Positions 27,649 to 61,522 of a DNA stretch of 64,000 nt are shown piece after piece (the stretch's first letter is position 1; every line of letters begins with the position of its first letter). Location: NCBI RefSeq assembly GCF_048403405.1, contig NZ_CP183129.1. One strand, written 5' to 3'. The stretch is from Escherichia coli. Its GTDB lineage: Bacteria; Pseudomonadota; Gammaproteobacteria; Enterobacterales; Enterobacteriaceae. The notes beneath the pieces were generated by a model. The model was not told the origin of the DNA. It saw nothing but the letters and a program-made list of their open reading frames with translations, and did no database searches. The position numbers and the translations under genes were made by a program.

Positions 27649-27745
27649 GTTTATATTGCCTCCATGCGAAGAAGGGACTACCATCCGAGTTGTTCAGGTT
27701 TGGGTAGGTAGCCCCAGGGTGTACTGACCCCAAAAAGTTGGACAG

Positions 27746-28597: not shown

Positions 28598-29115
28598 TTT
28601 TTCGTGGGATGAGCTAAGGCTTTCAGCTTTTTTAGATACATAAGCCGCGTTTCAAGAAATCGAACTTGCCTTTCAAGATCCTCAATGCGTCGGTCTTTTG
28701 ACAGCTCCAATGCTGATGCCGCTTTTTCTGGATCAACTGATATTGCAATGTTTCTTTTGGTGCCAATCTTGAGCGCGCGTAAACCAGCTTCTCCGCGCTC
28801 TTCATAGACCTTCAGCCACCTGGCTACAGAACCACTACCAGCAAGCATAAAGTGAGCAGCAGCCTGATTAAGGGACATGTGCTGCTCGATCACAGCTTTC
28901 ACGACCTTAATACGCAACTCTGGATCAGCACTAACGCCTTTAGGTTTGGGAATTAAACCTTTTTCTCCATGTTTTTCATAGAGGGCAACCCATGTCCTGA
29001 CCTGGGTTCGGGGGACACCAAAACGTGCCGAGATGATCCTGTAACCATCATCAGTTGTGAAGTAGTGATTCACGACTTCAAGGCGCTTTTCAAAAGGGTA
29101 TTTTGGCTTTGACAT
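28594..29115 (-). CDS. insJ: IS150 transposase OrfA (HTH)
   Basis: 173-aa ORF MSKPKYPFEKRLEVVNHYF... recognised as IS150 InsJ. Confidence 0.9.
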   Translation of the reverse strand: MSKPKYPFEKRLEVVNHYFTTDDGYRIISARFGVPRTQVRTWVALYEKHGEKGLIPKPKGVSADPELRIKVVKAVIEQHMSLNQAAAHFMLAGSGSVARWLKVYEERGEAGLRALKIGTKRNIAISVDPEKAASALELSKDRRIEDLERQVRFLETRLMYLKKLKALAHPTKK

Positions 29116-29526
29116 ATTAGGGGCTATTCCATTTCATCGTCCAACAAAATGGGTGCAGTACAGGGTTGATAGAAATATCTCCTGGGGCTTCATCTTTCCA
29201 GACCTCAGAGTAAACCTGAAACCGGAAAGCTTCAGGCACCCGCCGTTATCTTACCCTTCCTCAGCAAAATAGCTGTTTATTTATACAGTGAGTCCTGTTT
29301 CGGACTTCTCACTCCTAATTTGATCAACTGAAGCTGAACCCGTTTTTTTCTGCATGCCTCAATCGTCAAAATTCTTCGCCACCAGCCAGCTCTGCCATAA
29401 CTTGTCACATTGCAAAAGTAGCCAAATTGCTTCAGTCACCATCACCAAAAAAAAGAAACATTCCAGAACTTCCGCATCTCGCCCAGCCGCTCCGACTTCT
29501 ATACTGAATAGAAAACGCCAACATAA

Positions 29527-32207: not shown

Positions 32208-33503
<1,296 letters not shown>

Positions 33504-33505
33504 TT

Positions 33506-33548
33506 AAAAAAACCGCTCTCATCGAATGGATGAGAGCGGACATCGTTT
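33506..33548. terminator. bidirectional intrinsic terminator between convergent ybdG and pheP
   Basis: Perfect 11-bp inverted repeat ccgctctcatc / gatgagagcgg with 5-nt loop, flanked by an A-run on one side and a T-run on the other. Confidence 0.6.
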
Positions 33549-33570
33549 TGTCGGATGTAGCGTGAATGCC

Positions 33571-34947
33571 TTATTTCCGACGCAGCGTTTTAAATGCCAC
33601 AAACAGGAATACAATCCACACCGGCAGCAGGATCGCTGACAAGCGCATATCATCCATCGTGCACATCAGCAGCAAAATCATGCCGAGGAAGGCAATACAA
33701 AGATAGTTGCCGAACGGATAAAGCAGCGCCTTAAACTGTGTTTCACGTCCCTGACGTCGCATCGCCGCGCGAAAACGCAGATGCGCCAGGCAGATCATAA
33801 TCCAGTTCAACAGCAGCGTTGCTACCACCAGCGCCATCAGCAGACCAAACGCTTTTTGCGGCAGCAGATAGTTGATTAACACCACCAGCGAAGTGATCGC
33901 TCCGGAAAGCATCAGCGAGTTAATCGGCACGCCGCGACGGCTGACGCGAGTCAAAAACTTCGGCGCATTACCCTGCACAGAAAGGCCAAACAGCATGCGG
34001 CTGTTAGAGTAAACCCCGCTGTTATACACTGACAGCGATGCTACCAGAATGACGAAGTTCAGCGCAGAAGCTACCACGTTGCTGTCGAGATTATGGAAAA
34101 TCATCACAAACGGGCTACTGTTGGATTTCACTTCCACCCACGGATAGAGCGCCAGTAAAACTACCAGTGAACCGATATAAAACAGCAGGATGCGATACAC
34201 TACCTGATTTACCGCTTTCGGAATGCTTTTTTCCGGATCGCGCGCTTCAGCGGCAGTAATCCCAATCAGCTCCAGACCGCCGAAGGAGAACATAATCACC
34301 GCCAGCGACAAAATCAGCCCATTCCAGCCGGTGGCAAAGAAACCACCGTAGCGCCAGAGGTTGTCGATACTGGCTTTCTCGCCGCCGTGCCCAGAAAACA
34401 GCAGCCACAGGCCAAAGCCGATCATACCGATGATCGCCAGCACTTTAATCAGCGCAAACCAGAATTCGGTTTCGCCATATAAGCGCACGTTTACCAGGTT
34501 AACGGCGTTGATGATAATAAAGAAGGCGGCAGCCCAAATCCACGTTGGAACATCCGGGAACCAGTACTGCATATAGATGCCCGCAGCGGTCAGCTCTGCC
34601 ATTCCCACCAGCACGAACATCACCCAGTAGTTCCAGCCGGAGAGGAACCCGGCGAACGGTCCCCAGTATTTATAGGCAAAGTGGGCAAATGAACCGGATA
34701 CCGGCTCTTCGACCACCATCTCGCCGAGCTGGCGCATAATCAGGAAAGCGATGATCCCGGCGACGCCGTAGCCCAGTAATACAGCCGGACCCGCCATCTG
34801 AATCGCCGGGCCAATGCCAAGAAACAGACCAGTACCAATTGCGCCACCCAGCGCAATCAGTTGAATATGACGGTTATGTAATCCGCGATGAAGCGTCGGC
34901 TCTTGATTCGACGCAGTATCTTCCGATACGGTTGACGCGTTTTTCAC
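33571..34947 (-). CDS. pheP: phenylalanine-specific permease
   Basis: APC-family transporter; probable GTG start giving (M)KNASTVSEDT; the ORF track extends to 34983. Confidence 0.9.
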   Translation of the reverse strand: MKNASTVSEDTASNQEPTLHRGLHNRHIQLIALGGAIGTGLFLGIGPAIQMAGPAVLLGYGVAGIIAFLIMRQLGEMVVEEPVSGSFAHFAYKYWGPFAGFLSGWNYWVMFVLVGMAELTAAGIYMQYWFPDVPTWIWAAAFFIIINAVNLVNVRLYGETEFWFALIKVLAIIGMIGFGLWLLFSGHGGEKASIDNLWRYGGFFATGWNGLILSLAVIMFSFGGLELIGITAAEARDPEKSIPKAVNQVVYRILLFYIGSLVVLLALYPWVEVKSNSSPFVMIFHNLDSNVVASALNFVILVASLSVYNSGVYSNSRMLFGLSVQGNAPKFLTRVSRRGVPINSLMLSGAITSLVVLINYLLPQKAFGLLMALVVATLLLNWIMICLAHLRFRAAMRRQGRETQFKALLYPFGNYLCIAFLGMILLLMCTMDDMRLSAILLPVWIVFLFVAFKTLRRK

Positions 34948-35048
34948 GCCTTTCCCCTGTGTGTCTTTTTTGTTGAGGGGCACCTTTTAACATTTAGTGC
35001 CCATCGTCGCAAGACACAATCCACACGGTTAAACCGGGTATCCTGCTT

Positions 35049-38000
35049 TTATTTCCGTACCCGATGTCGGTGCAGCCACATCAGCTTATACGCCGCCGGG
35101 ATAATAAACAGCGATAGCAAAGGCGCGGTGATCATGCCGCCAATCATCGGCGCGGCAATCCGGCTCATCACCTCTGAACCTGCTCCCGTTCCCCACAGAA
35201 TCGGCAGCAGACCGGCGATAATCACTGCCACCGTCATCGCTTTCGGGCGCACGCGCAGGACCGCGCCGTGATACAACGCCTCATCCAGCTTCTGCTCGCT
35301 GAATGTTTGCGGATTATTCAACGACGGCTCGACCTCTATGGCGTGACGTAAATACATCAGCATCACCACGCCAAATTCGGCGGCGACTCCGGCGAGGGCA
35401 ATAAAACCGGTGCCCGTCGCCACGGAAAGATGAAAGCCCATCCACCACAGCAACCAGATGCCGCCCACCAGCGCAAACGGTACGCTGCTGATAATCAGCA
35501 ACGCTTCGCCCACCCGACGGAACGCCAGATACAACAGCACGAAGATGATCATCAGCGTCATCGGCACCATGAGTTTCAGCTTATGGTTGGCGCGCTCCAG
35601 TAGCTCGAACTGCCCGGAGAATGTCACGCTGGTGCCCGGTTTTAACTGCACTTTTTCAGCTATCGCTTTTTGCAAATCGTGAACCACCGACACCATGTCA
35701 CGATCGCGGGCATCGATATAAATCCAGCTCGTCGGGCGCGCATTCTCGGTTTTCAGCATCGACGGTCCGGTAGAGACTTTAACGTCGGCCACGTCTGCCA
35801 GGGTGATTTGCTGCTTCATCGGCGTCAGGATCGGCAACTGGCGCAGTGCCTGCGGACTATTGCGCCAGCTTTGCGGATAACGCAGATTAATTGGATAACG
35901 GGCAATCCCTTCCACCGTTTCGCCAACCATCGCCCCGCCCACCGCAGAAGTCACAAACAACTGCACATCCGCCACCGTCATACCGTAACGTGCGGCTTTT
36001 TCACGGTTAATCTCAACGTTGATATAGCGCCCACCTTCCAGACGCTCGGCAAGCGCAGAAGCCACGCCTGGCACCGTTCGTGCCACCTCTTCAATTTGCT
36101 CCGCCATCGCGTCGATATCCGCCAGCACAGTGCCGGAAACTTTAATGCCGATGGGGCTCTTAATGCCGGTTGAGAGCATATCGATACGGTTACGAATTGG
36201 CGGCACCCACAGATTCGCCAGCCCCGGCAGACGCACGGTGTTATCCAGTTCCTCAATGATTTTGTCCATCGTCATGCCTGGCCGCCACTGATCTTGTGGC
36301 TTAAGCTGGATGGTCGTTTCTACCATCTCCAGCGGAGCAGAATCGGTGGCGGTTTCCGCTTTCCCGGTTTTGCCAAATACCCGCGCCACTTCAGGTACGC
36401 TCATAATCAGCTTGTCGGTTTTTTGCAGCATACTCGCCGCCTCTGCTGCGGAAATCCCCGGCAGCGTCGATGGCATATACAACAAGTCGCCTTCATTGAT
36501 CTGCGGTAAAAATTCCCCGCCAACTTTATTGAGCGGCCAGAGAACCGTCAGCACCGAAAGCGCTGCCACCAGCAGCGTGGTTTTTGGCCAGTGCAGTACT
36601 TTCAGCAACAGCGGATGATAAGCACGAATCAAAAAGCGATTGAGCGGGTTACTGCTTTCTGGCGGAATTTTGCCACGGATCCAGTAACCCATCAGGATAG
36701 GGATCACTACGATCGCCAGCAGCGCCGCACCCGCCATCGCATACGTTTTGGTGAACGCCAGCGGGCCAAACAGACGCCCTTCCTGCCCTTCCAGGGTGAA
36801 GATCGGGATAAACGACAACGTGATAATCAGCAGACTGATAAACAGCGCCGGCCCCACTTCAACAGATGCATCGGTGATCACCTGCCAGCGCGTTTTATTA
36901 TCCAGCGTGGCGTCAGGATGCTGGTGCTGCCACTCTTCCAGTCGTTTATGCGCATTCTCGATCATGACGATAGCGGCATCGACCATCGCCCCGACGGCAA
37001 TCGCAATGCCGCCCAGCGACATAATATTGGCATTCAGCCCCTGGAAGTGCATGACAATAAAAGCAATACACAACCCCAGCGGCAACGAAATAATCGCCAC
37101 CAGCGCCGAGCGCACATGCCAGAGAAACAGCGCACAGACTACCGCCACCACAATAAACTCTTCCAGCAACTTGCCGCTGAGGTTGTCGATGGCGCGGTCA
37201 ATGAGCTGGCTGCGATCGTATGTTGTAACTATCTCCACGCCTTCCGGCAGACTGCTTTTCAGCGTTTCCAGTTTGTCTTTCACGGCGGCGATCACTTCTC
37301 GGGCGTTTTTGCCGGAGCGCAGGATCACCACCCCGCCCGCCACTTCGCCTTCGCCGTTCAGTTCGGCAATGCCCCGGCGCATCTCCGGGCCAATCTGGAC
37401 CTTCGCAACATCGCGCAGATAAACGGGCACGCCATTTTCACTGGCTTTTAAAACGATGTGATTAAAGTCGTCGAGCGTTTGCAGATAGCCGCTGGCGCGC
37501 ACCATATATTCCGCTTCCGCCAGTTCGATCGACGAACCGCCCGCTTCCTGGTTTGAAGCATCCAGCGCGCTTTTTACTTCGGCGAGACTGATGCCATATT
37601 GCGCCAGGCGCTGGGGATCGATAACCACCTGATACTCTTTCACCACACCGCCCACCGACGCCACTTCCGCAACGTCAGGGATGGTTTTTAGCTCATATTT
37701 GAGAAACCAGTCCTGCAATGAGCGTAAATCGGCCAGATCGTGCTTACCGCTGCGATCCACCAGTGCATATTCATAGATCCAGCCAACACCCGTGGCATCT
37801 GGCCCCAGCTCAGCGCTGACTCCCGCAGGCAGCTTACCCTGTACCTGGTTGAGGTACTCCAGCACCCGCGAGCGCGCCCAGTATGGATCGGTGCCATCTT
37901 CGAAAATGACATACACATAAGAGTCGCCAAACTGCGAGAAACCGCGCACAGTCTTCGCGCCAGGCACCGACAACATAGTGGTGGTTAGCGGATAAGTCAC

Positions 38001-38192
38001 CTGATTTTCAACGATTTGCGGTGCCTGACCGGGATAGCTGGTTTTAATAATCACCTGCACATCAGAGAGATCCGGCAGTGCATCCACTGGCGTGTTAATG
38101 ATGGTCCAGGTGCCCCAGATACTCAGAAACAACGCGCCCATCAGCACCAGAAAACGGTTCGCCACCGAGCGACGAATAATCCATTCAATCAT
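35049..38192 (-). CDS. cusA: RND copper/silver efflux pump
   Basis: 1047-aa RND transporter ORF. Confidence 0.95.
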
Positions 38193-38203
38193 TGGTTATT
38201 CCC

Positions 38204-39427
38204 TCAATGCGCATGGGTAGCACTTTCAGAGCGCATCCGCTCCAGTGCGCCAGAAATATTGGCTTCGGAATCAATCAGGAACAGGCCGCTGGAAACCACC
38301 TTTTCACCTTCCGCCAGACCAGAGCGTAATGCGGTGACGCCTTGCGATGCCTGGAAAACGGCAACGCGTTTCGGTACAAAGCGCCCGTCGGCATCAACGG
38401 TAATCACCCGCTGTTCGCTGCCGGTATCAATCAGCGCTTGTGACGGAATGAGCAGCATCGGTTCGCTGGCGGTGTTGAGTTGCAACCAGGCGTTCATTCC
38501 CGGCTTTAGCGCCTCGTCGGTGTTGTCGACTTCCAGGCGCAGCTGCAGCGTGCGGGTTGCGGCATCCACGCCGGGTAGCAGCGTCCATTTGCGGATGGTG
38601 AGTGTTTTATCAGGTCGTGCCGGAACGGTGAGCGTAAACTGCGAGGCATCTTTCACCAGCCAGGCGATGGACTCCGGGATCGCGGCAGTGATCCACACCG
38701 GATCCATACCCTGAATTTTCGCGACCACGTTATCTTTGGCGATATTCATTCCCGCGCGCAGATCAAACGCGGTGATCACGCCATCAATGGGCGCTTTGAG
38801 CGTAAAGCGAGTCTGGATTTTTTGCGTGGCGATCAGGCGGCGAATATCCGCCTCCGGCATTCCCGCCAGTCTCAGCCGCTCAAGAATGCCTTCAGTCTGG
38901 GTCGCCGTACCGCCAGTTTCGCGCAGCAGTAAATACTCACTCTGCGCTTCCACCCAGTCGGGAATGGTCAGGTCGAGAAGCGGCGCGCCCTTTTGTACTT
39001 TATCGCCCACGGTAAGCGGATACACCTTGTCGATAAACCCGGCGGCGCGGGCCTGCACAATGGCATACTGATACTCGTTGTAACTGACATTCGCCGGGAA
39101 ACTTTGGGCAAAAGTCAGCGGCCCGCGCGTGACGGTCGCCGTTTTCACCCCCAGATTCTGCGTCTGAGTCGGGTCAATGCGCACACCAGACGCAGAACTC
39201 TCTTCATCGGCATATTTCGGCACCAGATCCATATCCATAAACGGCGATTTACCTGGTTTATCGAACCGCGTATTGGGATACATCGGGTCGTACCAGAATA
39301 AGATTTTACGTTCTGCGGTCGACGTTTTTTCTGCGGGCGGTTCCGCCTTTGCAAACCAGGTAAAACCTGCCGCAGAAATAATACCGCCCGCGATCATGCT
39401 GCCGATAATAAGCGCGATTTTTTTCAT
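38204..39427 (-). CDS. cusB: membrane fusion protein of Cus efflux
   Basis: 407-aa ORF; synteny. Confidence 0.95.
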   Translation of the reverse strand: MKKIALIIGSMIAGGIISAAGFTWFAKAEPPAEKTSTAERKILFWYDPMYPNTRFDKPGKSPFMDMDLVPKYADEESSASGVRIDPTQTQNLGVKTATVTRGPLTFAQSFPANVSYNEYQYAIVQARAAGFIDKVYPLTVGDKVQKGAPLLDLTIPDWVEAQSEYLLLRETGGTATQTEGILERLRLAGMPEADIRRLIATQKIQTRFTLKAPIDGVITAFDLRAGMNIAKDNVVAKIQGMDPVWITAAIPESIAWLVKDASQFTLTVPARPDKTLTIRKWTLLPGVDAATRTLQLRLEVDNTDEALKPGMNAWLQLNTASEPMLLIPSQALIDTGSEQRVITVDADGRFVPKRVAVFQASQGVTALRSGLAEGEKVVSSGLFLIDSEANISGALERMRSESATHAH

Positions 39428-39442
39428 CTCATTAAACCTGGG

Positions 39443-39775
39443 TTACTGGCTGACTTTAATATCCTGTAATAAAGAAAGGTTGCCCTGCTGGACAAAATTA
39501 AACGCCACTTTGTCGCCGGTTTTTATTTCGCCCATCTTCGTCTGCGGGGTGATGGTAAAGCGCATGGTCATCTCCGGCCAGTTCACGGCAGCAATCGGAT
39601 CGTGATGGATAGTGATTTTTTTGCTTTCCAGATCAATACCTTTTACCACCCCTGTGGCACTAATGACCTGCGGTTGTGCTTCGCTCATGGTTTCATGATG
39701 ATGTTCGTTAGCCTGGGCATTAAAGCCAATAACGGTAAACAGACTGAACATTGCGACTTGCAGTGCTTTTTTCAT
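39443..39775 (-). CDS. cusF: periplasmic copper chaperone
   Basis: 110-aa ORF MKKALQVAMFSLF...; matches CusF. Confidence 0.95.
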   Translation of the reverse strand: MKKALQVAMFSLFTVIGFNAQANEHHHETMSEAQPQVISATGVVKGIDLESKKITIHHDPIAAVNWPEMTMRFTITPQTKMGEIKTGDKVAFNFVQQGNLSLLQDIKVSQ

Positions 39776-39798
39776 TTATTCTCTCCTGGAGTTAAAAA

Positions 39799-41170
39799 TT
39801 ATTGCTGCCAACCGCCACCAAGTGCGGTATATAAAGAAATTTCGTTAACCTGACGGGCATAATTCAGGTCAAGTAAAGTTTGTCGGGTTGCAAATAAAGA
39901 ACGTTCGGCATCCAGCACTTCCAGATAACTGACTGCGCCGTGCTGATATAATGCCCGCGCCCGTTGCAAAGTAATTTGCAGCGATGCCAGATAACGCTGC
40001 TGGGCGCTAATTTGATCGTTCAGGCTTTGACGTAATGCCAGCGCATCTGCCACTTCTTTAAAGGCATTCTGGATTTTCTGTTCATAATTCACCACCGACT
40101 GCTGCTGGCGAATTTCGGCGATATCCAGATTGGCCTGGTTGCGTCCGGCATTAAAAATGGGGATCTCAATTTTGGGAATAAAATTCCACATCCCGCTGCT
40201 GGCGTTAAATAAGGACGACAGATCGCTGCTGGCGGTCGATATTCCGCTGGTCAGACTGATAGACGGGAAAAATGCCGCGCGTGCAGCGCCAATATTGGCA
40301 TTAGCCGCCATCAACGCGTGTTCAGCTTCCATAATATCCGGGCGCTGCAATAAGATTTGCGACGACAAGCCCGCCGGTAATTTAACGCTTTGCAGGCTGT
40401 CGCTGTTTACTGTTTGCGCTTGCGGCAGCTTGCCGTAGCTTCCCAGCAACAGTTGCAATGCATTATTCGCCTGCGCCAGTTCCCCCTGACGTTTAGCGAT
40501 GTCGCTGCGGGTACTTTCTATCACCCCGCGAGCCTGTTCCAGCGCCAGAACATTGCTGCTACCGGTCAACAGTTGTTTTTCGACAAACGCATATGACTGC
40601 TGATAATTACGCAGCGTTTCTTCGGCTATTTGCAATTGCGCATACGCCAGTTGCTGATTGAAATAGCTTTGCGCGACATTAGAAACCAGCAGAATATGCA
40701 CCGCGCGCTGGGCTTCCTCAGTGGCTAAATAATTTTGGCGCTCGGCTTCGCTCATGTTCTTTAAGCGACCGAAAAAATCGAGATCAAAGCTGGCGTTAAG
40801 GCCGGTCGAAAACTCCCGTGTCGTGGCGGTATTCCCTTTAAGATTACCGCTCCAGCTGCCGCTGCCCTCGCCATTGAGCTGTGGGTAGCGGTCGGCATCG
40901 GTCAGACGATATTGCGCCCGTGCCTCCTGCACTTTCAGCGTCGCCATGCGCAAATCCCGGTTATTCACCAGCGCCTCGCTAATCAGCGTCTTCACCTGAT
41001 TATCAATAAAAAAGGTGCGCCAGCCCGCGTTCTGGTAGTTATCTGCTGCGTTAACCAGGCCGTTCTGGCTGAGTGAGAACTGCTTCGGTACGGGCATTGC
41101 CGGACGCTGATAATCCGGTGCCAATGAACAACCGGTTAGCGCAAGGGCCACACAAAATGGCAGAAGTTTA
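39799..41170 (-). CDS. cusC: outer-membrane factor of Cus efflux, 5' end interrupted by IS26
   Basis: Lipoprotein signal LLPFCVALALTGC is present, but the first few native codons are replaced: the reading frame runs into the IS26 terminus at 41171 and only a GTG inside IS26 could serve as start. Confidence 0.85.
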
Positions 41171-41990
41171 GGCACTGTTGCAAATAGTCGGTGGTGATAA
41201 ACTTATCATCCCCTTTTGCTGATGGAGCTGCACATGAACCCATTCAAAGGCCGGCATTTTCAGCGTGACATCATTCTGTGGGCCGTACGCTGGTACTGCA
41301 AATACGGCATCAGTTACCATGAGCTGCAGGAGATGCTGGCTGAACGCGGAGTGAATGTCGATCACTCCACGATTTACCGCTGGGTTCAGCGTTATGCGCC
41401 TGAAATGGAAAAACGGCTGCGCTGGTACTGGCGTAACCCTTCCGATCTTTGCCCGTGGCACATGGATGAAACCTACGTGAAGGTCAATGGCCGCTGGGCG
41501 TATCTGTACCGGGCCGTCGACAGCCGGGGCCGCACTGTCGATTTTTATCTCTCCTCCCGTCGTAACAGCAAAGCTGCATACCGGTTTCTGGGTAAAATCC
41601 TCAACAACGTGAAGAAGTGGCAGATCCCACGATTCATCAACACGGATAAAGCGCCCGCCTATGGTCGCGCGCTTGCTCTGCTCAAACGCGAAGGCCGGTG
41701 CCCGTCTGACGTTGAACACCGACAGATTAAGTACCGGAACAACGTGATTGAATGCGATCATGGCAAACTGAAACGGATAATCAACGCCACGCTGGGATTT
41801 AAATCCATGAAGACGGCTTACGCCACCATCAAAGGTATTGAGGTGATGCGTGCACTACGCAAAGGCCAGGCCTCAGCATTTTATTATGGTGATCCCCTGG
41901 GCGAAATGCGCCTGGTAAGCAGAGTTTTTGAAATGTAAGGCCTTTGAATAAGACAAAAGGCTGCCTCATCGCTAACTTTGCAACAGTGCC
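41171..41990 (+). mobile_element. IS26 (IS6 family), 820-bp copy 1
   Basis: Termini GGCACTGTTGCAAA ... TTTGCAACAGTGCC; internal 234-aa Tnp26. Confidence 0.95.
41234..41938 (+). CDS. tnpA: IS26 transposase Tnp26 (variant with His at residue 29)
   Basis: MNPFKGRHFQRDIILWAVRWYCKYGISY(H)ELQEM... recognised as the IS26 transposase. Confidence 0.95.
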   Translation: MNPFKGRHFQRDIILWAVRWYCKYGISYHELQEMLAERGVNVDHSTIYRWVQRYAPEMEKRLRWYWRNPSDLCPWHMDETYVKVNGRWAYLYRAVDSRGRTVDFYLSSRRNSKAAYRFLGKILNNVKKWQIPRFINTDKAPAYGRALALLKREGRCPSDVEHRQIKYRNNVIECDHGKLKRIINATLGFKSMKTAYATIKGIEVMRALRKGQASAFYYGDPLGEMRLVSRVFEM

Positions 41991-42439
41991 AATTTTACGC
42001 CGTCGGCGGTACGCAGCCAGCGCGGGGATTTGAGTCCTTCCGTGAAATTCCAGACCAGCTCACACAGCAGCCCGGTCAGGGTTTGCTCCATTTTTGGTTC
42101 CGCCGGACGTTCCAGCAGAAGCTGGAGTAGTGCGAGGCAGTATTCGCACAAGGAATCAGGTTCGGAAATAAAGTGCTCTGGTGTGGCGGGAAGGGTATCC
42201 ACGGTCAGGCTTTCGGTAAGATGCGGTGGGATGGGGTCGTGTAGTGTGGGTTGCAGTAGCGCAAGAGCCGCGTGAAGCCGCCCGCAGAGCGCCAGTCGTA
42301 GCGCTGGATCGTCGGTTTCAATCAGGGTTTCGGCAAAGCGGGCGCAGTAGTCAGCAAGGACAGTGAAATCCGTGGTGGCATTGAAGGGGACGGTCAATAG
42401 ATCGAGTAAATCGCTGTCAGTGGTGAGGATTGTAGCCAT
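41972..42439 (-). CDS. hypothetical acidic protein; 3' end runs into IS26 (probably truncated)
   Basis: 155-aa ORF with a GGAGG Shine-Dalgarno upstream of the ATG at 42439; its last codons and stop lie inside the IS26 inverted repeat. No family recognised. Confidence 0.45.
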   Translation of the reverse strand: MATILTTDSDLLDLLTVPFNATTDFTVLADYCARFAETLIETDDPALRLALCGRLHAALALLQPTLHDPIPPHLTESLTVDTLPATPEHFISEPDSLCEYCLALLQLLLERPAEPKMEQTLTGLLCELVWNFTEGLKSPRWLRTADGVKLALLQS

Positions 42440-42785
42440 AGGGCAACCTCCGATAAGTGGGTGTTCAAGCCACCACCGGAGAGGCTAATCTCGCGGGTGG
42501 TGGAACCGGGCAGGGTTAGCCTTACCAGCCTTATCGGACACTGGCGCGTCTTGCGACGCCCCCGCCCGGCCCACCATTGAGATGTAACCGTGCGAACAAC
42601 ACAAAAAAAGACGCTGGCGCGTCATGTGTCGCCGATAAGATTTCTTCAGGAGGCTAATCCCGACGCCTGATTTTGCAGGCGCGGGAGAAAGATACTGCGA
42701 TTGGTCATGAGTGGCAAGGGCTACATCATGTTTACCGACATCTCACGCAAAAATACCCTGATTATTAATAGCGAAAATCAGTTTC

Positions 42786-45700
42786 TTATTTTGGCGGTAG
42801 CTTTTTGCGGTTCTTTGCCAACTGGAATCCTTCAGGTAACGGTTTGAATTTATCGCCGCCTTTAGGCCAGCGTTTTGCCCTGCTCTGAAATGCCCTTAAC
42901 GAGTCGATATCCAGCGTTGCAGCGACCACAAAGTCATTATCACCGCCCTTCACACGAGCAATATCACGCATAAAGGGTTCTTTTGCCGGGGAACGTACGC
43001 GACTATCGCCGTATTTTCGGTTATTCACTAAAATAGTATAGGCATGAATATCCAGCGCTGCTGATTCAATCAACGATGCAAACGTATCTAGATCTTTATT
43101 CCAGCTCAATACCATTAATGCATCGAGTGCGCCCTGAAAACGGATCCTCGCTTTACTATTCTGGAGTTCAGAGCAAATCATAACGCCAAAATTGACGCCG
43201 TGATGAATATATACCGGCTTACGTTGTTTAACATTAAGTGTCGAATCCCAAGACTTACCATAAGTTGAAAATAATGCCTCATCTTCACCTACGGCGGGTT
43301 CCAGCTTGGGTTGCCATATTTTGACACTCGCTGGATAGCCGAGTCTGTTATCTGAAAGGACAAGTACGGCCTCACTCTTCAGTTGATTATCGTCTAAGTG
43401 GCGGTATTCTGTTCCCGCAATTAGACTGATACCCGCCGAACTCAAACGATCAGCAATACTGTTAACCCAGCGTAACGGGATTGAAAGCTCAGGGAATAAA
43501 ACATAATCAGGTTTAGGAGATAGTTTCAATGTTGCATTAACCAGTTCAGAAATCCGCTGGTACCTTGAACGGGACAAGTTAGATTTATTGCAGGCCATTT
43601 TAGCCCAGTCGTCCTCCTCTGTTTTAATGCTGGTTAGCGCAACGACAACTTTATGTTTCCTGTCTGTGCCAATATGAATGAATTTCTTAGGCCGAGCTTT
43701 TTTTGTCGCTTCATCTGAGTCCTGCTCCGATGCTAGCAACGTCGGTTTGATCCATACTCCGCGTAATGCTTGAGTATATTTTGCCCAAATGGTGGACGGT
43801 CTCTCATCTGGTTTTTTGTCGGATGTGGAGGGTAATCCAACACATTCGGGGGCCAGTTCTGATATTTCAGCGGGTGTTAAAGGACGTGTAGGGAAAATGT
43901 AAGGTAGGTAACTTTCGTTTTTACGATTTCCTTTAGCCACTTTTTCCAGTCGGGTATTCTTGGTTGATTTCAAAAATAGCTTAATAACGTCAATATCAAT
44001 AAGCGATGAGTCGCTCATTAATTTCAGTATTTTAACTTCTTTTTTACTATCACGCTGATTAACAAGTTTTTCTGCCGACTGACTCTTTACGATCTGTTTA
44101 TAAGGTTCCTTTGCTAAATCAGCTCGAGCTACCAATGGCGCTTTTAAATAAAAATCTGCTGAATCAAAGCGAAGATCCAGTAAATCCTTTAGATTCGTCA
44201 GACTTTGTGAAATATGATTAAAAAATGTATCCGCAAGGCACTCTTCTTTCTTTGAACGTTTATCAAGAAATAATCTGTCAGGACTGTAATATCGTGTCGC
44301 TGCATCAACAAATAGCCAGCTTAATGTGCCTTTTATACAGCGCCAAAGATCATTTACTGCTCGAGTTTTGCAACCATTTATATTCACTTCCTTACCTGAA
44401 GTAATCACCGATGCCAACAGGTTGATGGATTCGTAAGCTTTAAGTACAATTTTTTCCGCGTGCTGCCATTCATTCATACTGATAGCAAAGCCAAGCAGCC
44501 TTGGCAGATAACTAAAATGTGCAAATAGATTATCAGCCCTAAGAATATGGTTGTAGGCAAACTGATAAAACTCTTCCCGCTGTTCTTTCCATTCACTTGG
44601 AGGCAGATCTCGTGCCAGTGTTTCAACGTAGCGTAATTGCAGTGACCAGCCCAAACGACGAATGGTTAATCCATCCGCACGGCGCAGAGTATCGGCATTT
44701 TCACCTACACTACCGGCAGCGGAAAGGACTTTAGCTGCGGTGGAGTGTTCCAGTTGATCCGGTGAAGGCATCAAGCGGTGTTCACTAGAAAGCTCGTAGA
44801 TCTCCTTTTCGATACTGTCGAGCAGGTCTATTCCAGCCCTCCCTTGAAGCACGAAAAGTTTTTGCTTATCGGATTGTAACTGGATGGTGGTCTTACCCTG
44901 GAAATGCTCGCCCTGCTGTATTTGCCATATTTGTTTTTGCTCGTTTTTCAAATAAACGCAATCATTGCCAAGCCTATCTTGCAGCAATAACATAAATTCG
45001 TGATTATTAGTAATTGTCCCTGTATCGCGTATTACAAGGAACATATCATCGACATAACGACCGTAGTGAATTGGTGATAGTTTTTCAATGACTAATTTAT
45101 CCCAATGGTGTAGCAATATATTTGAAATGATCCGACTGGCTGTTAATCCAATGACCAGACCACCATTAATAACAGGTGTTTTGTACGCTATTTTCTTTCC
45201 AAATGCCGCTGCGCCGTCAGACCAGTGCTTTAAGAATACTGCTAACTGTGCAGTAAACGCTTTTTCATCCTCAGTCAGTTTTATGTTTAGTGTGTTATAG
45301 AGATCATCAGAGGTTATAGCCAGTGGATCAATAAAATGATAGTAACTTTTTAAATCCAGTGAGGCGGCGATAATGTCACGATCTTTTTCCAACTCGTCAC
45401 GTATAGCTTTTAAGCCATCACCACGCCATTTTTGGTAGGGCTGGAAGTAGGGGCTAAAAGAACCCACGGCACTGATATGGAATGGATTATCCTGCTCATT
45501 GCTAAATAATTCATCATTACGAATACGCTTTAGCCGCGCGCCATAGCAACAGTTATCTAAGCTGGCATCAAATTTATGCCCGACCATGTTAATCCATAGT
45601 GCAGAGATAATGTGACTATCAACCGGGAAGTCACCAATAATACGAAACTCTGGTATCAGATCAAAATTATTAAATAAATGGTCGGCTGCTCGTTTAGGAT

Positions 45701-45995
45701 TAGAAAAGTGGACGTGTCCATTTTGGGATTCATGTTTTTTCTTTGTGGTTAATTTTTTCGGTAACAAACGAAATTTGCCAATCAACTTCTTATTGCTACT
45801 GAATCCATCTTCGCTCTGCAAAAGATCTAAGAGTTTTTGCAGGTTTTCAAGTAATTCCTGCTCATACTCGGCAAATTTGATAGCAACAGGAAATGTATTC
45901 TCAAAGAAGCTATCGGCTTTTGCTTTCCGGTAAGCGACCAGAAGGTCTTCAATCGTCAGATCATCCCAGCCAGTGAAAATTGCCTGATATGTCAT
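42786..45995 (-). CDS. reverse transcriptase-nitrilase fusion protein (DRT type 1 / UG1-like defence-associated RT)
   Basis: 1069-aa ORF with AAGGA Shine-Dalgarno. RT motif A ASLDLKSYYHFID, motif B GGLVIGLTASRIISNILL, motif C RYVDDMFLV (nt 45033-45059); C-terminal CN-hydrolase domain with FPELS (Glu836), VKIWQPK and GVMICSEL (Cys941, nt 43173-43175). Confidence 0.85.
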   Translation of the reverse strand: MTYQAIFTGWDDLTIEDLLVAYRKAKADSFFENTFPVAIKFAEYEQELLENLQKLLDLLQSEDGFSSNKKLIGKFRLLPKKLTTKKKHESQNGHVHFSNPKRAADHLFNNFDLIPEFRIIGDFPVDSHIISALWINMVGHKFDASLDNCCYGARLKRIRNDELFSNEQDNPFHISAVGSFSPYFQPYQKWRGDGLKAIRDELEKDRDIIAASLDLKSYYHFIDPLAITSDDLYNTLNIKLTEDEKAFTAQLAVFLKHWSDGAAAFGKKIAYKTPVINGGLVIGLTASRIISNILLHHWDKLVIEKLSPIHYGRYVDDMFLVIRDTGTITNNHEFMLLLQDRLGNDCVYLKNEQKQIWQIQQGEHFQGKTTIQLQSDKQKLFVLQGRAGIDLLDSIEKEIYELSSEHRLMPSPDQLEHSTAAKVLSAAGSVGENADTLRRADGLTIRRLGWSLQLRYVETLARDLPPSEWKEQREEFYQFAYNHILRADNLFAHFSYLPRLLGFAISMNEWQHAEKIVLKAYESINLLASVITSGKEVNINGCKTRAVNDLWRCIKGTLSWLFVDAATRYYSPDRLFLDKRSKKEECLADTFFNHISQSLTNLKDLLDLRFDSADFYLKAPLVARADLAKEPYKQIVKSQSAEKLVNQRDSKKEVKILKLMSDSSLIDIDVIKLFLKSTKNTRLEKVAKGNRKNESYLPYIFPTRPLTPAEISELAPECVGLPSTSDKKPDERPSTIWAKYTQALRGVWIKPTLLASEQDSDEATKKARPKKFIHIGTDRKHKVVVALTSIKTEEDDWAKMACNKSNLSRSRYQRISELVNATLKLSPKPDYVLFPELSIPLRWVNSIADRLSSAGISLIAGTEYRHLDDNQLKSEAVLVLSDNRLGYPASVKIWQPKLEPAVGEDEALFSTYGKSWDSTLNVKQRKPVYIHHGVNFGVMICSELQNSKARIRFQGALDALMVLSWNKDLDTFASLIESAALDIHAYTILVNNRKYGDSRVRSPAKEPFMRDIARVKGGDNDFVVAATLDIDSLRAFQSRAKRWPKGGDKFKPLPEGFQLAKNRKKLPPK

Positions 45996-46289
45996 GCGTT
46001 ATCGTCCTTAGATTACAGTCTGTACAGAATTAGCCAGCCGTTTCATGCCCGAAGGGGGGCTCTTGACACCAGTAATCCATCAGTGAGGCTGGCAATAATT
46101 TTGATTTGTATCCATGTTACACGCTCCCCGCAACCAGTCCGAGCATATATTTGTCACATTTTTCCCGAAAGTGATTAAGTTTGAATTTTTTGTTTAATGT
46201 CGATTTTTAGTCGACAAAATGAGGAATAAGTAAACTATTTCTTGCTGTGGCGTATCCCTGAATCTACACTGGTTTAAATATTTGTACTA

Positions 46290-47093
46290 ATGTCTATTCA
46301 GAGGCGACAGTTGCCAAACTATCTAAACTGGCTGATGCAGCACACGCTACCCGGCCAGGTGCTGCTCCAGTCATGGCTTACCCGCAACGGCATAGATCGT
46401 AAGCTCTCTTATCTCTATGTGAAGAATGGCTGGCTCAGGCGGATCGCTCACGGCGTATACTGCCGGACGGGCCGTGAGCCGGATTGGGTAGACGCGGTTT
46501 ACTGCCTTCAAACACAGTGGGAAAAGCCTGTTCGGGTGGCGGGGCTAACCAGCCTTGCGCTTCAGGGCCATGCGCACTATACCGAACCGGGTAAGCCGCA
46601 GGTCTGGCTCGCGCTTCCGGCTTACGTTAAGCTGCCGGGATGGTTTGCTGCCTTCGAACAATCTGCAACATTTATCACGCTGTATACATCGGGGCTTACC
46701 GTAGATGTAACGTCATTGACTACGGAACTGAAAATTGGCGACCGCCAGTTAGCAGGCAGTGCCCCGGAACTGGCCGCGTATGAGATCGCCTGCGGCGTTC
46801 CTTCGTTGATATCGTTCGAACATGCCGATGCTCTGTTTCAGGGGATGAATCTTCTCAGCCCACGCAAATTGCAGGCACTGCTTCGCGCCAGCCATTCGGT
46901 TAAAACCAACCGGGTGATGCTTTACCTTGCCCGGCGTAATGGACACCCTTATTTTCAGTATATTGATCAAAGCGGTATAGAAACAGGTACGGGAAAGCGG
47001 CAAATCATACCCGGCGGCTGGCTGGAGCCGGATTATCAAATTACTGTTCCACGCGCATTTAAACCGGAAGGAGTCGAAGATGGATCTGCGTGA
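46290..47093 (+). CDS. AbiEi-like antitoxin / transcriptional regulator (type IV TA)
   Basis: 267-aa ORF immediately upstream of, and overlapping by 14 bp, an AbiEii-like nucleotidyltransferase gene; N-terminal wHTH-like region with an R-x-x-x-G-V-Y motif. No clear Shine-Dalgarno, so the start is uncertain. Confidence 0.65.
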   Translation: MSIQRRQLPNYLNWLMQHTLPGQVLLQSWLTRNGIDRKLSYLYVKNGWLRRIAHGVYCRTGREPDWVDAVYCLQTQWEKPVRVAGLTSLALQGHAHYTEPGKPQVWLALPAYVKLPGWFAAFEQSATFITLYTSGLTVDVTSLTTELKIGDRQLAGSAPELAAYEIACGVPSLISFEHADALFQGMNLLSPRKLQALLRASHSVKTNRVMLYLARRNGHPYFQYIDQSGIETGTGKRQIIPGGWLEPDYQITVPRAFKPEGVEDGSA

Positions 47094-48000
47094 TAGCTAT
47101 GCCCGGCAGGTCAAACTGTTGATGGCCGCTCTGCCGTATGTGGCGAAGGAGTCCTGTTTCGCGTTGAAAGGCGGCACCGCAATCAATTTGTTTGTGCAGG
47201 ATTTTCCCCGTCTGTCGGTGGATATTGATCTGGCGTACAAGAGCTTTGCGGATCGCGATACTGATTTGGCGGCTATCAACGACGCTTTGAAGAGGATTAC
47301 TGCATCGCTGAACGGCAGACCGGGGATCACCGCGATTCGGCAGGAAAATAAAGCGGATGAAAAGCGCATCATTGTGAATACCGCTGATGCAAAGATTAAG
47401 ATCGAGGTTAGCCCGGTCTGGCGCGGGCTGTTGTTGCCTCCGGCAGAAATGCCTGTGTGCGAACGTGTGGAAATGGAGTATGGCTTCACCACCATGAGTG
47501 TCGTCTCGCTGGCGGATCTTTATGGCGGTAAAATCTGCGCTGCGCTTGATCGTCAGCACCCGCGCGATCTGTTTGATGTGCTGAATATGCTGGAGAAACC
47601 GGGACTGATGCGGGAGATCTTTGACGGTTTTCTTTGTTATCTGGCAGGCCATCCCCGCCCCATCGCCGAGTTGCTGGCTCCAAACTGGGATACAGAGCGG
47701 ATCGCCACGTTGTACGCGCAGGAATTTTCGGGGATGACTCAGCAGGAAACGTCGCTGGAATCGCTGCTGTCAGTAACGACTTTGCTGCCGCAGGCGTTGA
47801 AGTCACATCTTACGGATCTGGATCGCGAGTTCTTGCTCAGTTTTAAGCAAAACAGCCCTGACTGGTCGCGGTATCGCTATCCTGAAATTCAGCATCTTCC
47901 GGCTATTCGCTGGAAGCAACGTAATCTGGCGGTGCTGAAAGATAAAAATCCGGCGAAGTATGTGGCGGCGGTGAATAAGCTAGAGAGGGTGCTGGCGTAA
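47080..48000 (+). CDS. AbiEii-like nucleotidyltransferase toxin (DUF1814 family)
   Basis: 306-aa ORF with GGAG Shine-Dalgarno; N-terminal nucleotidyltransferase motif LKGGTAINLF...LSVDIDLAY typical of AbiEii/AbiGii toxins. Confidence 0.8.
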   Translation: MDLRDSYARQVKLLMAALPYVAKESCFALKGGTAINLFVQDFPRLSVDIDLAYKSFADRDTDLAAINDALKRITASLNGRPGITAIRQENKADEKRIIVNTADAKIKIEVSPVWRGLLLPPAEMPVCERVEMEYGFTTMSVVSLADLYGGKICAALDRQHPRDLFDVLNMLEKPGLMREIFDGFLCYLAGHPRPIAELLAPNWDTERIATLYAQEFSGMTQQETSLESLLSVTTLLPQALKSHLTDLDREFLLSFKQNSPDWSRYRYPEIQHLPAIRWKQRNLAVLKDKNPAKYVAAVNKLERVLA

Positions 48001-48364
48001 TCAATAGACCAGCATTAATCACGGATGATTACCAATCAGACAGATATGGTTAAATCATCGAATTCATAATTAATACTTTTTCTTACGCCGCTGAACAGCT
48101 TGAAAAGGATACATATTTTAAATATCAGTGAAGTGGACAGTTTATTGCCGTTATTAATAGAGATGGAGGAATAAATACGCGTATTCTACTATTGCAACAA
48201 AAACAACGATGATGATCAGTTTTCATAATGAAGTAACCTGACAGATATAAAAATGTTGATTGAGGCTCAATGCCCGGATGAAGGTTGTCGAGGGAGCCAG
48301 GTGGTTTTTTCTTTTGGGTGATCTCCATTGCTGGATAGTCCCCTCTTTCTCGCTCAAAGCAGAC

Positions 48365-48689
48365 TGTACTGCACCCATTTTGTTGGACGATGAAATGGAA
48401 TAGCCCCTAATATGTCAAAGCCAAAATACCCTTTTGAAAAGCGCCTTGAAGTCGTGAATCACTACTTCACAACTGATGATGGTTACAGGATCATCTCGGC
48501 ACGTTTTGGTGTCCCCCGAACCCAGGTCAGGACATGGGTTGCCCTCTATGAAAAACATGGAGAAAAAGGTTTAATTCCCAAACCTAAAGGCGTTAGTGCT
48601 GATCCAGAGTTGCGTATTAAGGTCGTGAAAGCTGTGATCGAGCAGCACATGTCCCTTAATCAGGCTGCTGCTCACTTTATGCTTGCTGG
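48365..48689 (+). mobile_element. IS150 5' fragment (325 bp), truncated by IS26
   Basis: Begins with the IS150 terminal repeat TGTACTGCACCCATTTTG and is identical in protein sequence to the start of insJ in the full copy at 27720-29162; ends abruptly at the IS26 terminus. Confidence 0.9.
48412..48689 (+). pseudogene. insJ: insJ fragment (first ~92 codons of IS150 OrfA)
   Basis: MSKPKYPFEKR...AAAHFMLAG, then the frame reads into IS26. Confidence 0.85.
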
Positions 48690-49509
48690 GGCACTGTTGC
48701 AAATAGTCGGTGGTGATAAACTTATCATCCCCTTTTGCTGATGGAGCTGCACATGAACCCATTCAAAGGCCGGCATTTTCAGCGTGACATCATTCTGTGG
48801 GCCGTACGCTGGTACTGCAAATACGGCATCAGTTACCGTGAGCTGCAGGAGATGCTGGCTGAACGCGGAGTGAATGTCGATCACTCCACGATTTACCGCT
48901 GGGTTCAGCGTTATGCGCCTGAAATGGAAAAACGGCTGCGCTGGTACTGGCGTAACCCTTCCGATCTTTGCCCGTGGCACATGGATGAAACCTACGTGAA
49001 GGTCAATGGCCGCTGGGCGTATCTGTACCGGGCCGTCGACAGCCGGGGCCGCACTGTCGATTTTTATCTCTCCTCCCGTCGTAACAGCAAAGCTGCATAC
49101 CGGTTTCTGGGTAAAATCCTCAACAACGTGAAGAAGTGGCAGATCCCACGATTCATCAACACGGATAAAGCGCCCGCCTATGGTCGCGCGCTTGCTCTGC
49201 TCAAACGCGAAGGCCGGTGCCCGTCTGACGTTGAACACCGACAGATTAAGTACCGGAACAACGTGATTGAATGCGATCATGGCAAACTGAAACGGATAAT
49301 CAACGCCACGCTGGGATTTAAATCCATGAAGACGGCTTACGCCACCATCAAAGGTATTGAGGTGATGCGTGCACTACGCAAAGGCCAGGCCTCAGCATTT
49401 TATTATGGTGATCCCCTGGGCGAAATGCGCCTGGTAAGCAGAGTTTTTGAAATGTAAGGCCTTTGAATAAGACAAAAGGCTGCCTCATCGCTAACTTTGC
49501 AACAGTGCC
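48690..49509 (+). mobile_element. IS26 (IS6 family), 820-bp copy 2
   Basis: Same termini as copy 1, same orientation; one nucleotide differs from copy 1 (G at 48838 versus A at 41319). Confidence 0.95.
48753..49457 (+). CDS. tnpA: IS26 transposase Tnp26
   Basis: 234-aa ORF with ...GISYRELQEM..., the form recalled as canonical for Tnp26. Confidence 0.95.
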   Translation: MNPFKGRHFQRDIILWAVRWYCKYGISYRELQEMLAERGVNVDHSTIYRWVQRYAPEMEKRLRWYWRNPSDLCPWHMDETYVKVNGRWAYLYRAVDSRGRTVDFYLSSRRNSKAAYRFLGKILNNVKKWQIPRFINTDKAPAYGRALALLKREGRCPSDVEHRQIKYRNNVIECDHGKLKRIINATLGFKSMKTAYATIKGIEVMRALRKGQASAFYYGDPLGEMRLVSRVFEM

Positions 49510-51543
49510 AAACCGTTAGCGATTATGGTTCCGGCGTGGAATGAAACGGGCGTCATCGGCAATATGGCCGAGCTGGCGGCGACCACGCTCGACTATGAAA
49601 ACTATCATATCTTTGTTGGCACCTACCCCAACGACCCCGATACACAGCGTGATGTTGACGAAGTGTGCGCTCGCTTCCCGAACGTGCATAAGGTAGTCTG
49701 CGCGCGTCCTGGCCCCACCAGCAAAGCCGACTGCCTGAACAACGTGCTGGACGCCATCACCCAGTTTGAGCGTAGCGCCAATTTCGCTTTTGCTGGTTTT
49801 ATTCTGCATGACGCCGAAGACGTAATTTCACCGATGGAATTGCGTCTGTTCAACTATCTGGTCGAGCGTAAAGATCTGATTCAGATCCCGGTGTATCCGT
49901 TCGAACGCGAATGGACGCACTTCACCAGCATGACTTACATTGATGAGTTTTCAGAACTGCATGGCAAAGATGTTCCGGTGCGTGAAGCCCTCGCCGGACA
50001 AGTGCCCAGCGCAGGCGTCGGTACCTGTTTCAGCCGCCGCGCCGTGACCGCACTGTTAGCTGACGGTGACGGTATTGCTTTCGACGTGCAGAGTCTTACT
50101 GAAGATTACGACATTGGTTTCCGCCTGAAAGAAAAAGGTATGACGGAAATTTTTGTCCGTTTTCCGGTGGTGGACGAAGCCAAAGAACGCGAGCAGCGTA
50201 AATTTTTACAGCACGCGCGGACGTCAAACATGATCTGCATGCGCGAATATTTCCCTGATACCTTTTCGACTGCGGTTCGACAAAAATCTCGCTGGATCAT
50301 CGGCATTGTTTTCCAGGGCTTTAAAACCCACAAATGGACCTCCAGCCTGACGCTGAACTACTTTCTCTGGCGCGACCGCAAAGGGGCAATCAGTAACTTT
50401 GTCAGCTTTCTCGCGATGCTGGTGATGATCCAGCTTCTGCTGTTACTGGCGTATGAAAGTTTGTGGCCCGATGCCTGGCATTTCCTTTCTATTTTCAGCG
50501 GCAGCGCATGGTTAATGACCCTGCTGTGGCTAAACTTTGGTTTGATGGTTAACCGCATCGTGCAGCGGGTGATTTTTGTCACTGGCTACTACGGTCTGAC
50601 GCAGGGGCTGCTATCTGTCCTGCGTCTTTTCTGGGGCAACCTGATTAACTTCATGGCCAACTGGCGCGCGTTAAAACAGGTACTTCAACACGGCGATCCA
50701 CGTCGTGTCGCGTGGGATAAAACAACGCATGACTTCCCCAGCGTGACTGGCGATACCCGCTCGTTGCGCCCGTTAGGCCAAATTCTGCTGGAAAATCAGG
50801 TCATCACTGAAGAACAACTCGATACAGCACTGCGTAATCGCGTCGAAGGTCTACGCCTGGGCGGTTCAATGCTGATGCAGGGGCTGATTAGCGCCGAACA
50901 GCTGGCACAGGCGCTGGCAGAGCAAAACGGCGTGGCGTGGGAATCCATCGACGCCTGGCAGATCCCGTCCTCGCTGATTGCCGAAATGCCGGCCTCCGTG
51001 GCGCTGCATTATGCAGTGCTGCCGCTGCGTCTGGAAAATGATGAGTTAATTGTCGGCAGTGAAGATGGTATTGACCCGGTTTCGCTGGCGGCCCTGACGC
51101 GTAAAGTCGGACGCAAAGTGCGTTACGTCATTGTTCTGCGGGGACAAATTGTCACGGGGTTACGTCACTGGTATGCACGCCGACGCGGTCACGATCCGCG
51201 GGCAATGTTGTACAATGCGATTCAGCATCAGTGGCTCACGGAACAGCAGGCCGGTGAAATCTGGCGGCAATATGTGCCGCATCAGTTCCTGTTCGCCGAA
51301 ATACTGACCACGCTCGGTCATATTAATCGTTCAGCAATTAACGTGTTGTTATTGCGCCATGAACGCAGTTCTCTGCCGCTCGGCAAGTTTTTGGTCACCG
51401 AAGGCGTTATCAGCCAGGAAACGTTGGATCGCGTCCTGACAATTCAACGCGAATTACAAGTTTCGATGCAATCACTATTACTCAAAGCAGGTTTAAACAC
51501 AGAACAGGTTGCGCAACTGGAGTCCGAAAATGAAGGAGAATAA
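49510..51543 (+). pseudogene. nfrB: phage N4 adsorption protein B (glycosyltransferase family 2), 5'-truncated by IS26
   Basis: The frame is open from the IS26 junction; the first Met gives 672 aa against a recalled native length of about 745 aa, so N-terminal membrane segments and the promoter are missing. Confidence 0.85.
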
Positions 51544-55393: not shown

Positions 55394-55575
55394 ATCTCCT
55401 CCAGGTAAGTCGGGTACGACCTGGCTTACCTCTTTCGCTCTCGTCAGAATTCCATCAAGATTAATTGCTAAAAAGCGTGCTAAAGAAAGAAGATCGTTAT
55501 CGGCGAACGGGCCGATCACTCATGCAGGAAGCATAGATCCTTTGAGCGGAGTTTCTGATATCTGAGGAGTGCGAA

Positions 55576-56337: not shown

Positions 56338-56382
56338 AGGGCAAAGCGGAAACGGATAGGACGGGGATAAATGAAGAAGAAA

Positions 56383-57334: not shown

Positions 57335-57336
57335 TA

Positions 57337-57852: not shown

Positions 57853-57862
57853 TCTCCGTACC

Positions 57863-58870: not shown

Positions 58871-58882
58871 TGATAATTTCCT

Positions 58883-61492: not shown

Positions 61493-61522
61493 AATTAGCT
61501 CTGATATTGTCAGATGATTCGG

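Follow-up and report, generated by a model that had tools for sequence, protein, structure and literature searches.

The copper/silver efflux operon cusCFBA has been cut off from its control region in the stretch of Escherichia coli DNA analyzed here (contig NZ_CP183129.1; "the window" denotes this whole stretch of 64,000 nucleotides). An IS26 element takes the place of the start of cusC, and the regulator genes cusR and cusS are gone from the locus. The sequence indicates that an IS26-mediated rearrangement is responsible and that it is recent. On the same grounds we consider it probable (~70%) that the operon is silent, or at best expressed by weak constitutive read-through, and that it does not respond to copper or silver.

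cusC runs into the left end of IS26

We compared the window with the genome of MS 69-1 (NZ_CP146675.1). The operon is arranged as listed below. cusF, cusB and cusA are open reading frames in agreement with the MS 69-1 annotation (for cusA in length), and fall within a stretch, 33000-41170, that is 100% identical in other complete genomes.

39799..41170, minus strand: cusC without its first 11 bases; 456 of 460 codons left, lipobox LTGC included (MS 69-1 comparison)
41173..41175, minus strand: GTG in the left terminal repeat of IS26; sole in-frame start, product M-P-K-LLPFCVALALTGC
39443..39775, minus strand: cusF, intact, 110 aa
38204..39427, minus strand: cusB, intact, 407 aa
35049..38192, minus strand: cusA, intact, 1047 aa

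cusC adjoins the left terminal repeat of an 820-bp IS26, with the boundary at 41170|41171. Relative to MS 69-1, the 11 coding bases at the 5' end of cusC (ATGTCTCCTTG) and all sequence upstream of them have given way to IS26. The junction reads ...TATTTGCAACAGTGCC|TAAACTTCTGCCATTTTGTG in the window and ...GTGCCTATGTCTCCTTG|TAAACTTCTGCCATTTTGTG at the same, native site of MS 69-1; on the minus strand the corresponding readings are ...CGACTATTTGCAACAGTGCC|TAAACTTCTGCCATTTTGTGTGGCC and ...TTATGTGCCTATGTCTCCTTG|TAAACTTCTGCCATTTTGTGTGGCC. A first-pass annotation of this DNA had placed the entry of the cusC frame into the IS26 left terminus at 41171 and had given MSPCK as the native start. The comparison bears out the boundary, and the MS 69-1 locus does read MSPCK, hence the open reading frame in the window is not intact.

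What remains is an open reading frame of 458 aa with a GTG start (39799..41175, minus strand), the translation of which is CusC sequence from residue 3 on. The frame is open from 41202 into cusC. An in-frame TAA lies at 41205-41203, and between this stop and the junction the GTG at 41175-41173 is the only ATG, GTG or TTG, confirming the earlier claim that the sole candidate start is a GTG inside the IS end. Read from this GTG, the fused N-terminus is MPKLLPFCVALALTGC..., in which the lipobox and the hydrophobic core survive along with a lysine. It is plausible from the translation that the GTG would thereby restore a lipoprotein signal peptide, making CusC exportable if it is made. No Shine-Dalgarno pairing was found upstream of the GTG at 41175 or upstream of the native cusC start of MS 69-1; since the native start also does without it, the GTG may be usable if transcribed. 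Exact look-ups in the gene-position index of the fused CusC (458 aa, M-P-K...) and of the 432-aa product from the next ATG returned no record. Decay in cusF, cusB and cusA was sought by comparison with sister genomes and none was seen. The window does not contain CusCFBA with all four genes intact, as the cusC start codon is gone with the first 11 bases.

An IS26-bounded unit replaces 19,579 bp

The region between cusC and nfrB contains the following features.

41171..41990, plus strand: IS26 copy A, 820 bp; tnp26 at 41234-41938; N184, private R29H; flanks GAAGTTTA and AATTTTAC
41991..48364: chromosomal part of the passenger, 6,374 bp; ykgR-region island in MS 69-1 and its relatives, matched at 100% identity
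41972-42439, minus strand: 155-aa ORF, last 7 codons taken over by IS26 copy A (right end)
42485-42649, minus strand: ash-family ORF, in the passenger
42786-45995, minus strand: DRT type 1 (UG5) reverse transcriptase-nitrilase, 1069 aa (PADLOC, E = 0)
46290-47093, plus strand: AbiEi, in the passenger
47080-48000, plus strand: AbiEii, in the passenger
48154-48222, minus strand: ykgR remnant, in the passenger
48365..48689, plus strand: 5' 325 bp of IS150 (terminal repeat and insJ start), cut by IS26 copy B
48690..49509, plus strand: IS26 copy B, 820 bp; tnp26 at 48753-49457; N184, R29; flanks CTTGCTGG and AAACCGTT
49510..51543, plus strand: nfrB without its first 68 codons (204 bases; MS 69-1 comparison)

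The window positions 41170 and 49510 correspond to 3,714,313 and 3,733,893 in MS 69-1. Between them 19,579 bp are missing, and a unit of 8,339 bp, composed of IS26 copy A, a 6,699-bp passenger and IS26 copy B, is present instead. On the cus side the missing stretch comprises the cusC start, the cusC-cusR intergenic region with both promoters, cusR and cusS. The island side accounts for a VgrG gene, a DcrB-like gene, several Rhs/PAAR genes and an ISAs1 transposase, and the far end for 204 bases (68 codons) of the nfrB 5' end, the N-terminal membrane helix among them. The intergenic region of MS 69-1 holds the palindrome AAAATGACAATTTTGTCATTTT, which we take to be the CusR box; the whole region is missing from the window. 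MS 69-1 cusR and cusS gave no match anywhere in the window, where only the cusC part of the query region aligned. Thus, adjacent cusRS genes and an intergenic region with the presumed CusR box and PcusC are both missing here. The first-pass annotation had noted the loss of the regulator genes and of the native start, and in this it was correct, but the extent is larger than it had described, with 19,579 bp gone and nfrB truncated at the other end.

The retained DNA is nearly identical to that of related genomes. Positions 1-41170 align gap-free to MS 69-1 with one mismatch, and this is also the sum of mismatches over all three matching blocks (1-41170, 41991-48364 and 49510-64000). The lone mismatch (window 36798) reflects a base private to MS 69-1, since five further complete genomes agree with the window at 100% over 33000-41170. 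Positions 49510-64000, carrying 'nfrB-nfrA-ybcH...sfm, show 100% identity to the same genomes.

cusRS were found in 5,335 of 5,426 complete E. coli genomes; their loss is uncommon yet not unique in the species. No record among the 5,426 genomes spans the cusC/IS26, IS26/segment or IS150/IS26 junction, the three of the four junctions that were searched. The exact 34-base pattern of the cusC/IS26 junction gave 0 matches in JGI metagenome contigs, and a literature search on IS26 and cusRS, within the library covered, found no paper describing such a disruption.

Two direct IS26 copies bracket a relocated chromosomal segment

The 14-base repeat GGCACTGTTGCAAA occurs at four sites in the window, 41171 (plus), 41977 (minus), 48690 (plus) and 49496 (minus), compared to 0.07 expected by chance. 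These sites pair to delimit two 820-bp IS26 elements in the same orientation, with perfect 14-bp terminal inverted repeats. Each copy has one gene for a 234-aa Tnp26, matching the annotated 'IS6-like element IS26 family transposase'. N184, present in both, marks the IS26-v1 / IS15-delta type, for which enhanced activity has been reported (PMC9412624; PMC7986276). The copies are one base apart, at IS position 149, resulting in R29H in copy A.

Comparison of the four flanks in both orientations revealed no two that were alike, as an 8-bp target-site duplication would require. Therefore, neither IS26 copy is a simple insertion. Loss of flanking repeats is expected after intramolecular IS26 transposition or deletion (PMC7986276).

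The 6,699 bp bracketed by this direct pair (both plus) are native to another location. In MS 69-1 the 6,374-bp segment is found at 4,053,892-4,060,265, where it runs in the opposite direction ~320 kb away from nfrB, and 258 genomes carry it in the ykgR region. The IS150 fragment that follows it matches, with 100% identity, the full IS150 located at about 27721-29163. In one complete genome (FDAARGOS_1289) an IS150 occupies the same ykgR site, where no IS26 is present. Note that 'plasmid unnamed3' of MS 69-1 (64,057 bp) duplicates the chromosomal ykgR-ecp-pao region together with a prophage; it has no IS26 junction.

We infer the following order of IS26 events. IS26, together with adjacent ykgR-region DNA (DRT1, AbiE and an IS150 already struck by IS26), would have been freed as a circular translocatable unit. 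This unit may then have entered the cus-nfrB region beside a resident IS26 or through cointegrate formation, and an IS26 adjacent deletion would have taken out the intervening 19.6 kb, a step that leaves no 8-bp target duplications. Direct-repeat pseudo-compound transposons, translocatable units, hybrid promoters and loss of repeats by intramolecular transposition are all described products of IS26 (PMC7986276). The one-base difference between copies A and B mildly favors a unit joining beside a pre-existing IS26 over a single replicative event, although a later mutation would account for it equally well. That the event is recent follows from the near absence of divergence from sister genomes and from cusF, cusB and cusA being undamaged. 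It is a new example of well-known IS26 damage and involves no new mechanism.

Other histories were considered. A deletion or inversion of ~280-320 kb between the ykgR region and cus was rejected, as nfrB-nfrA-ybcH-sfm resume directly after copy B; the flanks, which lack an inverted-duplication signature, also contradict a large inversion. IS26 is a multicopy 820-bp repeat and a frequent cause of assembler confusion, such that the junctions could be real and their linkage wrong, for example with a cusC'-IS26-'nfrB chromosome and the 7.5-kb IS26 plus segment present as a separate circle or a tandem array. Pairing junctions J3 and J2 does give a circular translocatable unit, and the structure is absent from all other genomes searched. 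Nevertheless, we regard such an artefact as highly improbable: the one-base difference suggests that the two IS26 copies were resolved separately, and direct-repeat IS26 units are what IS26 is expected to produce. Under either linkage, moreover, cusC is decapitated and cusRS are lost from the locus. It is extremely unlikely that the 19.6-kb stretch with cusRS has moved elsewhere in the genome, either as a reinserted translocatable unit or through an inversion with its endpoint outside the window. IS26 cis-deletions can free the deleted DNA as an IS26-bearing circle able to reintegrate (PMC7986276), but the window holds no sign in support of relocation and its flanks have no inverted-repeat signature. 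Wherever cusRS may be, cusC has lost its upstream PcusC and presumed CusR box.

Predicted expression of cusCFBA

Given that the regulators, the promoter and the presumed CusR box are all deleted, copper induction would be impossible at this locus even with cusRS elsewhere. IS26 carries an outward-facing -35 element, TTGCAA, which works best with a -10 element at a spacing of 17 nt (PMC11156391). The cusC junction provides one candidate of this kind.

41154..41183, minus strand: candidate IS26/cusC hybrid promoter; -35 TTGCAA at 41183-41178, 18-nt spacer, TGc and CATTTT at 41159-41154

The hybrid -10, CATTTT, has 3/6 consensus bases with an upstream TG at 18 nt, while the hexamer at 17 nt, CCATTT, has 1/6. 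In the consensus scan the candidate fell under the threshold and was not reported. Its start site (~41147) would lie downstream of the GTG at 41175, so that the classical IS26 promoter cannot give an mRNA containing this GTG. Judged by its position, a transcript from here could provide at most cusFBA and a non-exportable CusC; full-length CusC would require transcripts of the passenger genes to run on across IS26.

The scan detected no promoter-like site on the minus strand from 42689 to cusC. The nearest lies at 42717-42689, ~1.5 kb upstream; transcription from it would next meet a hairpin and T-run resembling a terminator (42623-42610). From 42610 to cusC, IS26 copy A included, no terminator-like site was detected on this strand. 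The 155-aa ORF, ash and DRT1 all point towards cusC, and together with the lack of terminator-like sites beyond 42610 this makes read-through across IS26 possible.

These features bear on two ways in which the operon might be active. Passenger transcripts could cross copy A antisense to tnp26 and be translated from the GTG at 41175, yielding a functional lipoprotein CusC and a constitutive CusCFBA. The frame is open from 41202, the GTG restores a lysine-containing n-region, an h-region and the lipobox, copy A shows no terminator-like site on the minus strand, Shine-Dalgarno pairing is missing from native and fused starts alike, and cusFBA are intact. We nonetheless think this unlikely, considering the distance of ~1.5 kb to the nearest promoter-like site, the terminator-like hairpin that follows that site, and a start codon, GTG, weaker than the native ATG; a recent event would leave the downstream genes intact in any case, and their state is no sign of selection. 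That the hybrid promoter, TTGCAA with TGc-CATTTT, fires at ~41147 to supply cusF, cusB and cusA with an N-terminally truncated, non-exportable CusC appears very unlikely. The IS26 -35 is known to be active with a -10 about 17 nt away (PMC11156391; PMC7986276), and a TG-extended CATTTT is present; however, this hexamer matches the consensus at only three positions, the spacing is 18 nt instead of 17, the site is below the scan threshold, and a pump without CusC lacks its outer-membrane channel.

Silence, or at best weak constitutive read-through, thus remains the favored state of cusCFBA. The first-pass annotation had left the operon either reliant on read-out from IS26 or silent. The second alternative is favored by our analysis, whereas an IS26 hybrid promoter is not a source of full-length CusC, its start site lying past the GTG. 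A more far-reaching proposal, which we hold to be quite unlikely, is that the IS26 repeat provides a movable start for translation, with its GTG in frame at codon 4 restoring a working lipoprotein signal peptide to CusC, that read-through out of the mobilized passenger makes CusCFBA constitutive and independent of its sensor, and that the loss of nfrB and the relocation of DRT1/AbiE, both phage-related, were co-selected. If this were true, an apparent knockout would be a rewired copper/silver pump.

Implications for the strain

CusRS is the activator of cusCFBA. Deletion of cusS lowered the anaerobic copper IC50 in LB from >100 μM to ~25 μM, without an aerobic effect on copper (PMC10100754). 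The present strain is expected to tolerate Cu(I) and Ag(I) less well, chiefly under anaerobiosis, unless sil or pco is present elsewhere. The predicted loss of copper/silver-inducible efflux bears on survival in the anaerobic gut and on exposure to copper-supplemented animal feed and to silver dressings. The strain is also predicted to have no working NfrB-dependent phage N4 receptor pathway and to lack the VgrG/Rhs effector island. IS26 has mostly been studied on resistance plasmids; the structure described here points to its ability to move chromosomal anti-phage genes (DRT1, AbiE) as a bounded unit and to delete tens of kilobases of core chromosome. The findings leave knowledge of IS26 and of Cus unchanged; their value is in the annotation and in the prediction of the strain's phenotype.

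Comparison with known systems

The unit resembles IS26 pseudo-compound transposons, translocatable units and adjacent deletions in having direct 820-bp copies with 14-bp GGCACTGTTGCAAA ends and a passenger between them. Shared as well are the lack of 8-bp target duplications, to be expected after intramolecular events, and the cutting of genes exactly at the IS termini. In contrast to the usual IS26 units, the passenger consists of chromosomal anti-phage genes (DRT1, AbiE) rather than antibiotic resistance genes, the site is chromosomal with 19.6 kb replaced, and the two copies are one base apart (R29H).

With regard to expression, the outward -35 TTGCAA faces the truncated gene as in the IS26 hybrid promoters of aphA7, blaSHV-2a, blaKPC and aac(6')-Ib-cr/blaOXA-1. 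Unlike in those cases, the best -10 is a 3/6 match at 18 nt, and the only start codon is inside the IS end, upstream of the transcript start.

The chromosome of AR_0114 (NZ_CP021732.1) provides a parallel, with an independent IS26 junction in the cus regulatory locus and IS26-bounded foreign DNA beside nfrB. It differs in that the break is within cusS, the 3' end of which is kept, that nfrB is intact, and that the insert came from a plasmid (MobF relaxase, VirB3).

Finally, the locus is comparable to that of laboratory cusS and cusRS deletion mutants of K-12, in which the two-component system that activates cusCFBA is likewise lost (PMC10100754). In contrast to these mutants, the deletion here extends to the promoter, the presumed CusR box and the start codon of cusC, and for this reason cusRS supplied in trans should not restore induction.

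Passenger genes of the IS26-bounded unit

The unit bounded by the two IS26 copies (window 41171-49509) carries chromosomal anti-phage defence genes as its cargo, not resistance genes. Its passengers, together with a second IS150 copy elsewhere in the window, are as follows:

41972-42439, minus strand: gene for a hypothetical protein of 155 residues, in the passenger segment
42786-45995, minus strand: DRT type 1 system (UG5 RT-nitrilase), within the IS26-bounded unit
46290-48000, plus strand: AbiEi/AbiEii, within the IS26-bounded unit
48365-48689, plus strand: IS150 fragment of 325 bp, in the passenger segment
about 27721-29163, minus strand: complete IS150, adjoining hokE, as it does in the reference genome MS 69-1

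Both the DRT type 1 system and AbiEi/AbiEii originate from the ykgR region, which lies ~320 kb away in sister genomes. The IS150 fragment is 100% identical to the complete IS150 copy, and in FDAARGOS_1289 an IS150 occupies the corresponding ykgR position, with no IS26 there. The other end of the segment abuts IS26 copy A, the copy next to cusC. Here the 155-residue protein has lost its last seven residues, FISEVAA, and ends instead in LALLQS, which is encoded by this copy's right repeat. The transcript of this ORF would head into IS26, in the direction of cusC.

A circular 64,057-bp record of MS 69-1, annotated as 'plasmid unnamed3' (NZ_CP146678.1), duplicates the ykgR-ecp-pao part of the chromosome plus a tailed prophage. 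It could represent an excised element or an error of assembly.

Comparison of the two IS26 copies

Copies A and B differ by one base at IS position 149 (A at window 41319 vs G at 48838). The change results in R29H in Tnp26 of copy A, a residue within the N-terminal region of the transposase. Tnp26 of both copies has N184, the IS26-v1/IS15-delta type.

Consequences at the deletion boundaries

In MS 69-1, the part of the deleted stretch at 3,716,603-3,733,688 holds a type VI secretion VgrG gene, a DcrB-like gene, several Rhs and PAAR genes with small ORFs downstream and an ISAs1 transposase, all absent from the window. The isolate is thus also missing an effector island.

On the cusC side, no Shine-Dalgarno pairing was detectable in the 22 nt upstream of the native start codon (duplex energy about 0; positions 1526-1565 of the MS 69-1 locus). 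Thus, the translation-signal cost of losing the leader is smaller than might be expected.

NfrB is a c-di-GMP-activated glycosyltransferase required for adsorption of phage N4. In the stretch from the end of IS26 copy B to the end of nfrB (window 49497-51543), the gene is missing codons 1-68, and with them the N-terminal membrane helix. TTGCAA is supplied by the right repeat of that IS26 copy, followed 18 nt on by GATTAT (4/6). This candidate promoter at the junction could drive nfrA; its start site would lie downstream of the first remaining nfrB ATG (49525).

An independent IS26 case is found in E. coli AR_0114 (NZ_CP021732.1, 1,240,587-1,255,135), where three IS26 copies together with plasmid-derived genes (MobF relaxase, VirB3 and HepT/MNT toxin-antitoxin) have integrated into the chromosome. 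There, in contrast to the present isolate, the inserted DNA truncates cusS directly upstream of an intact nfrB.
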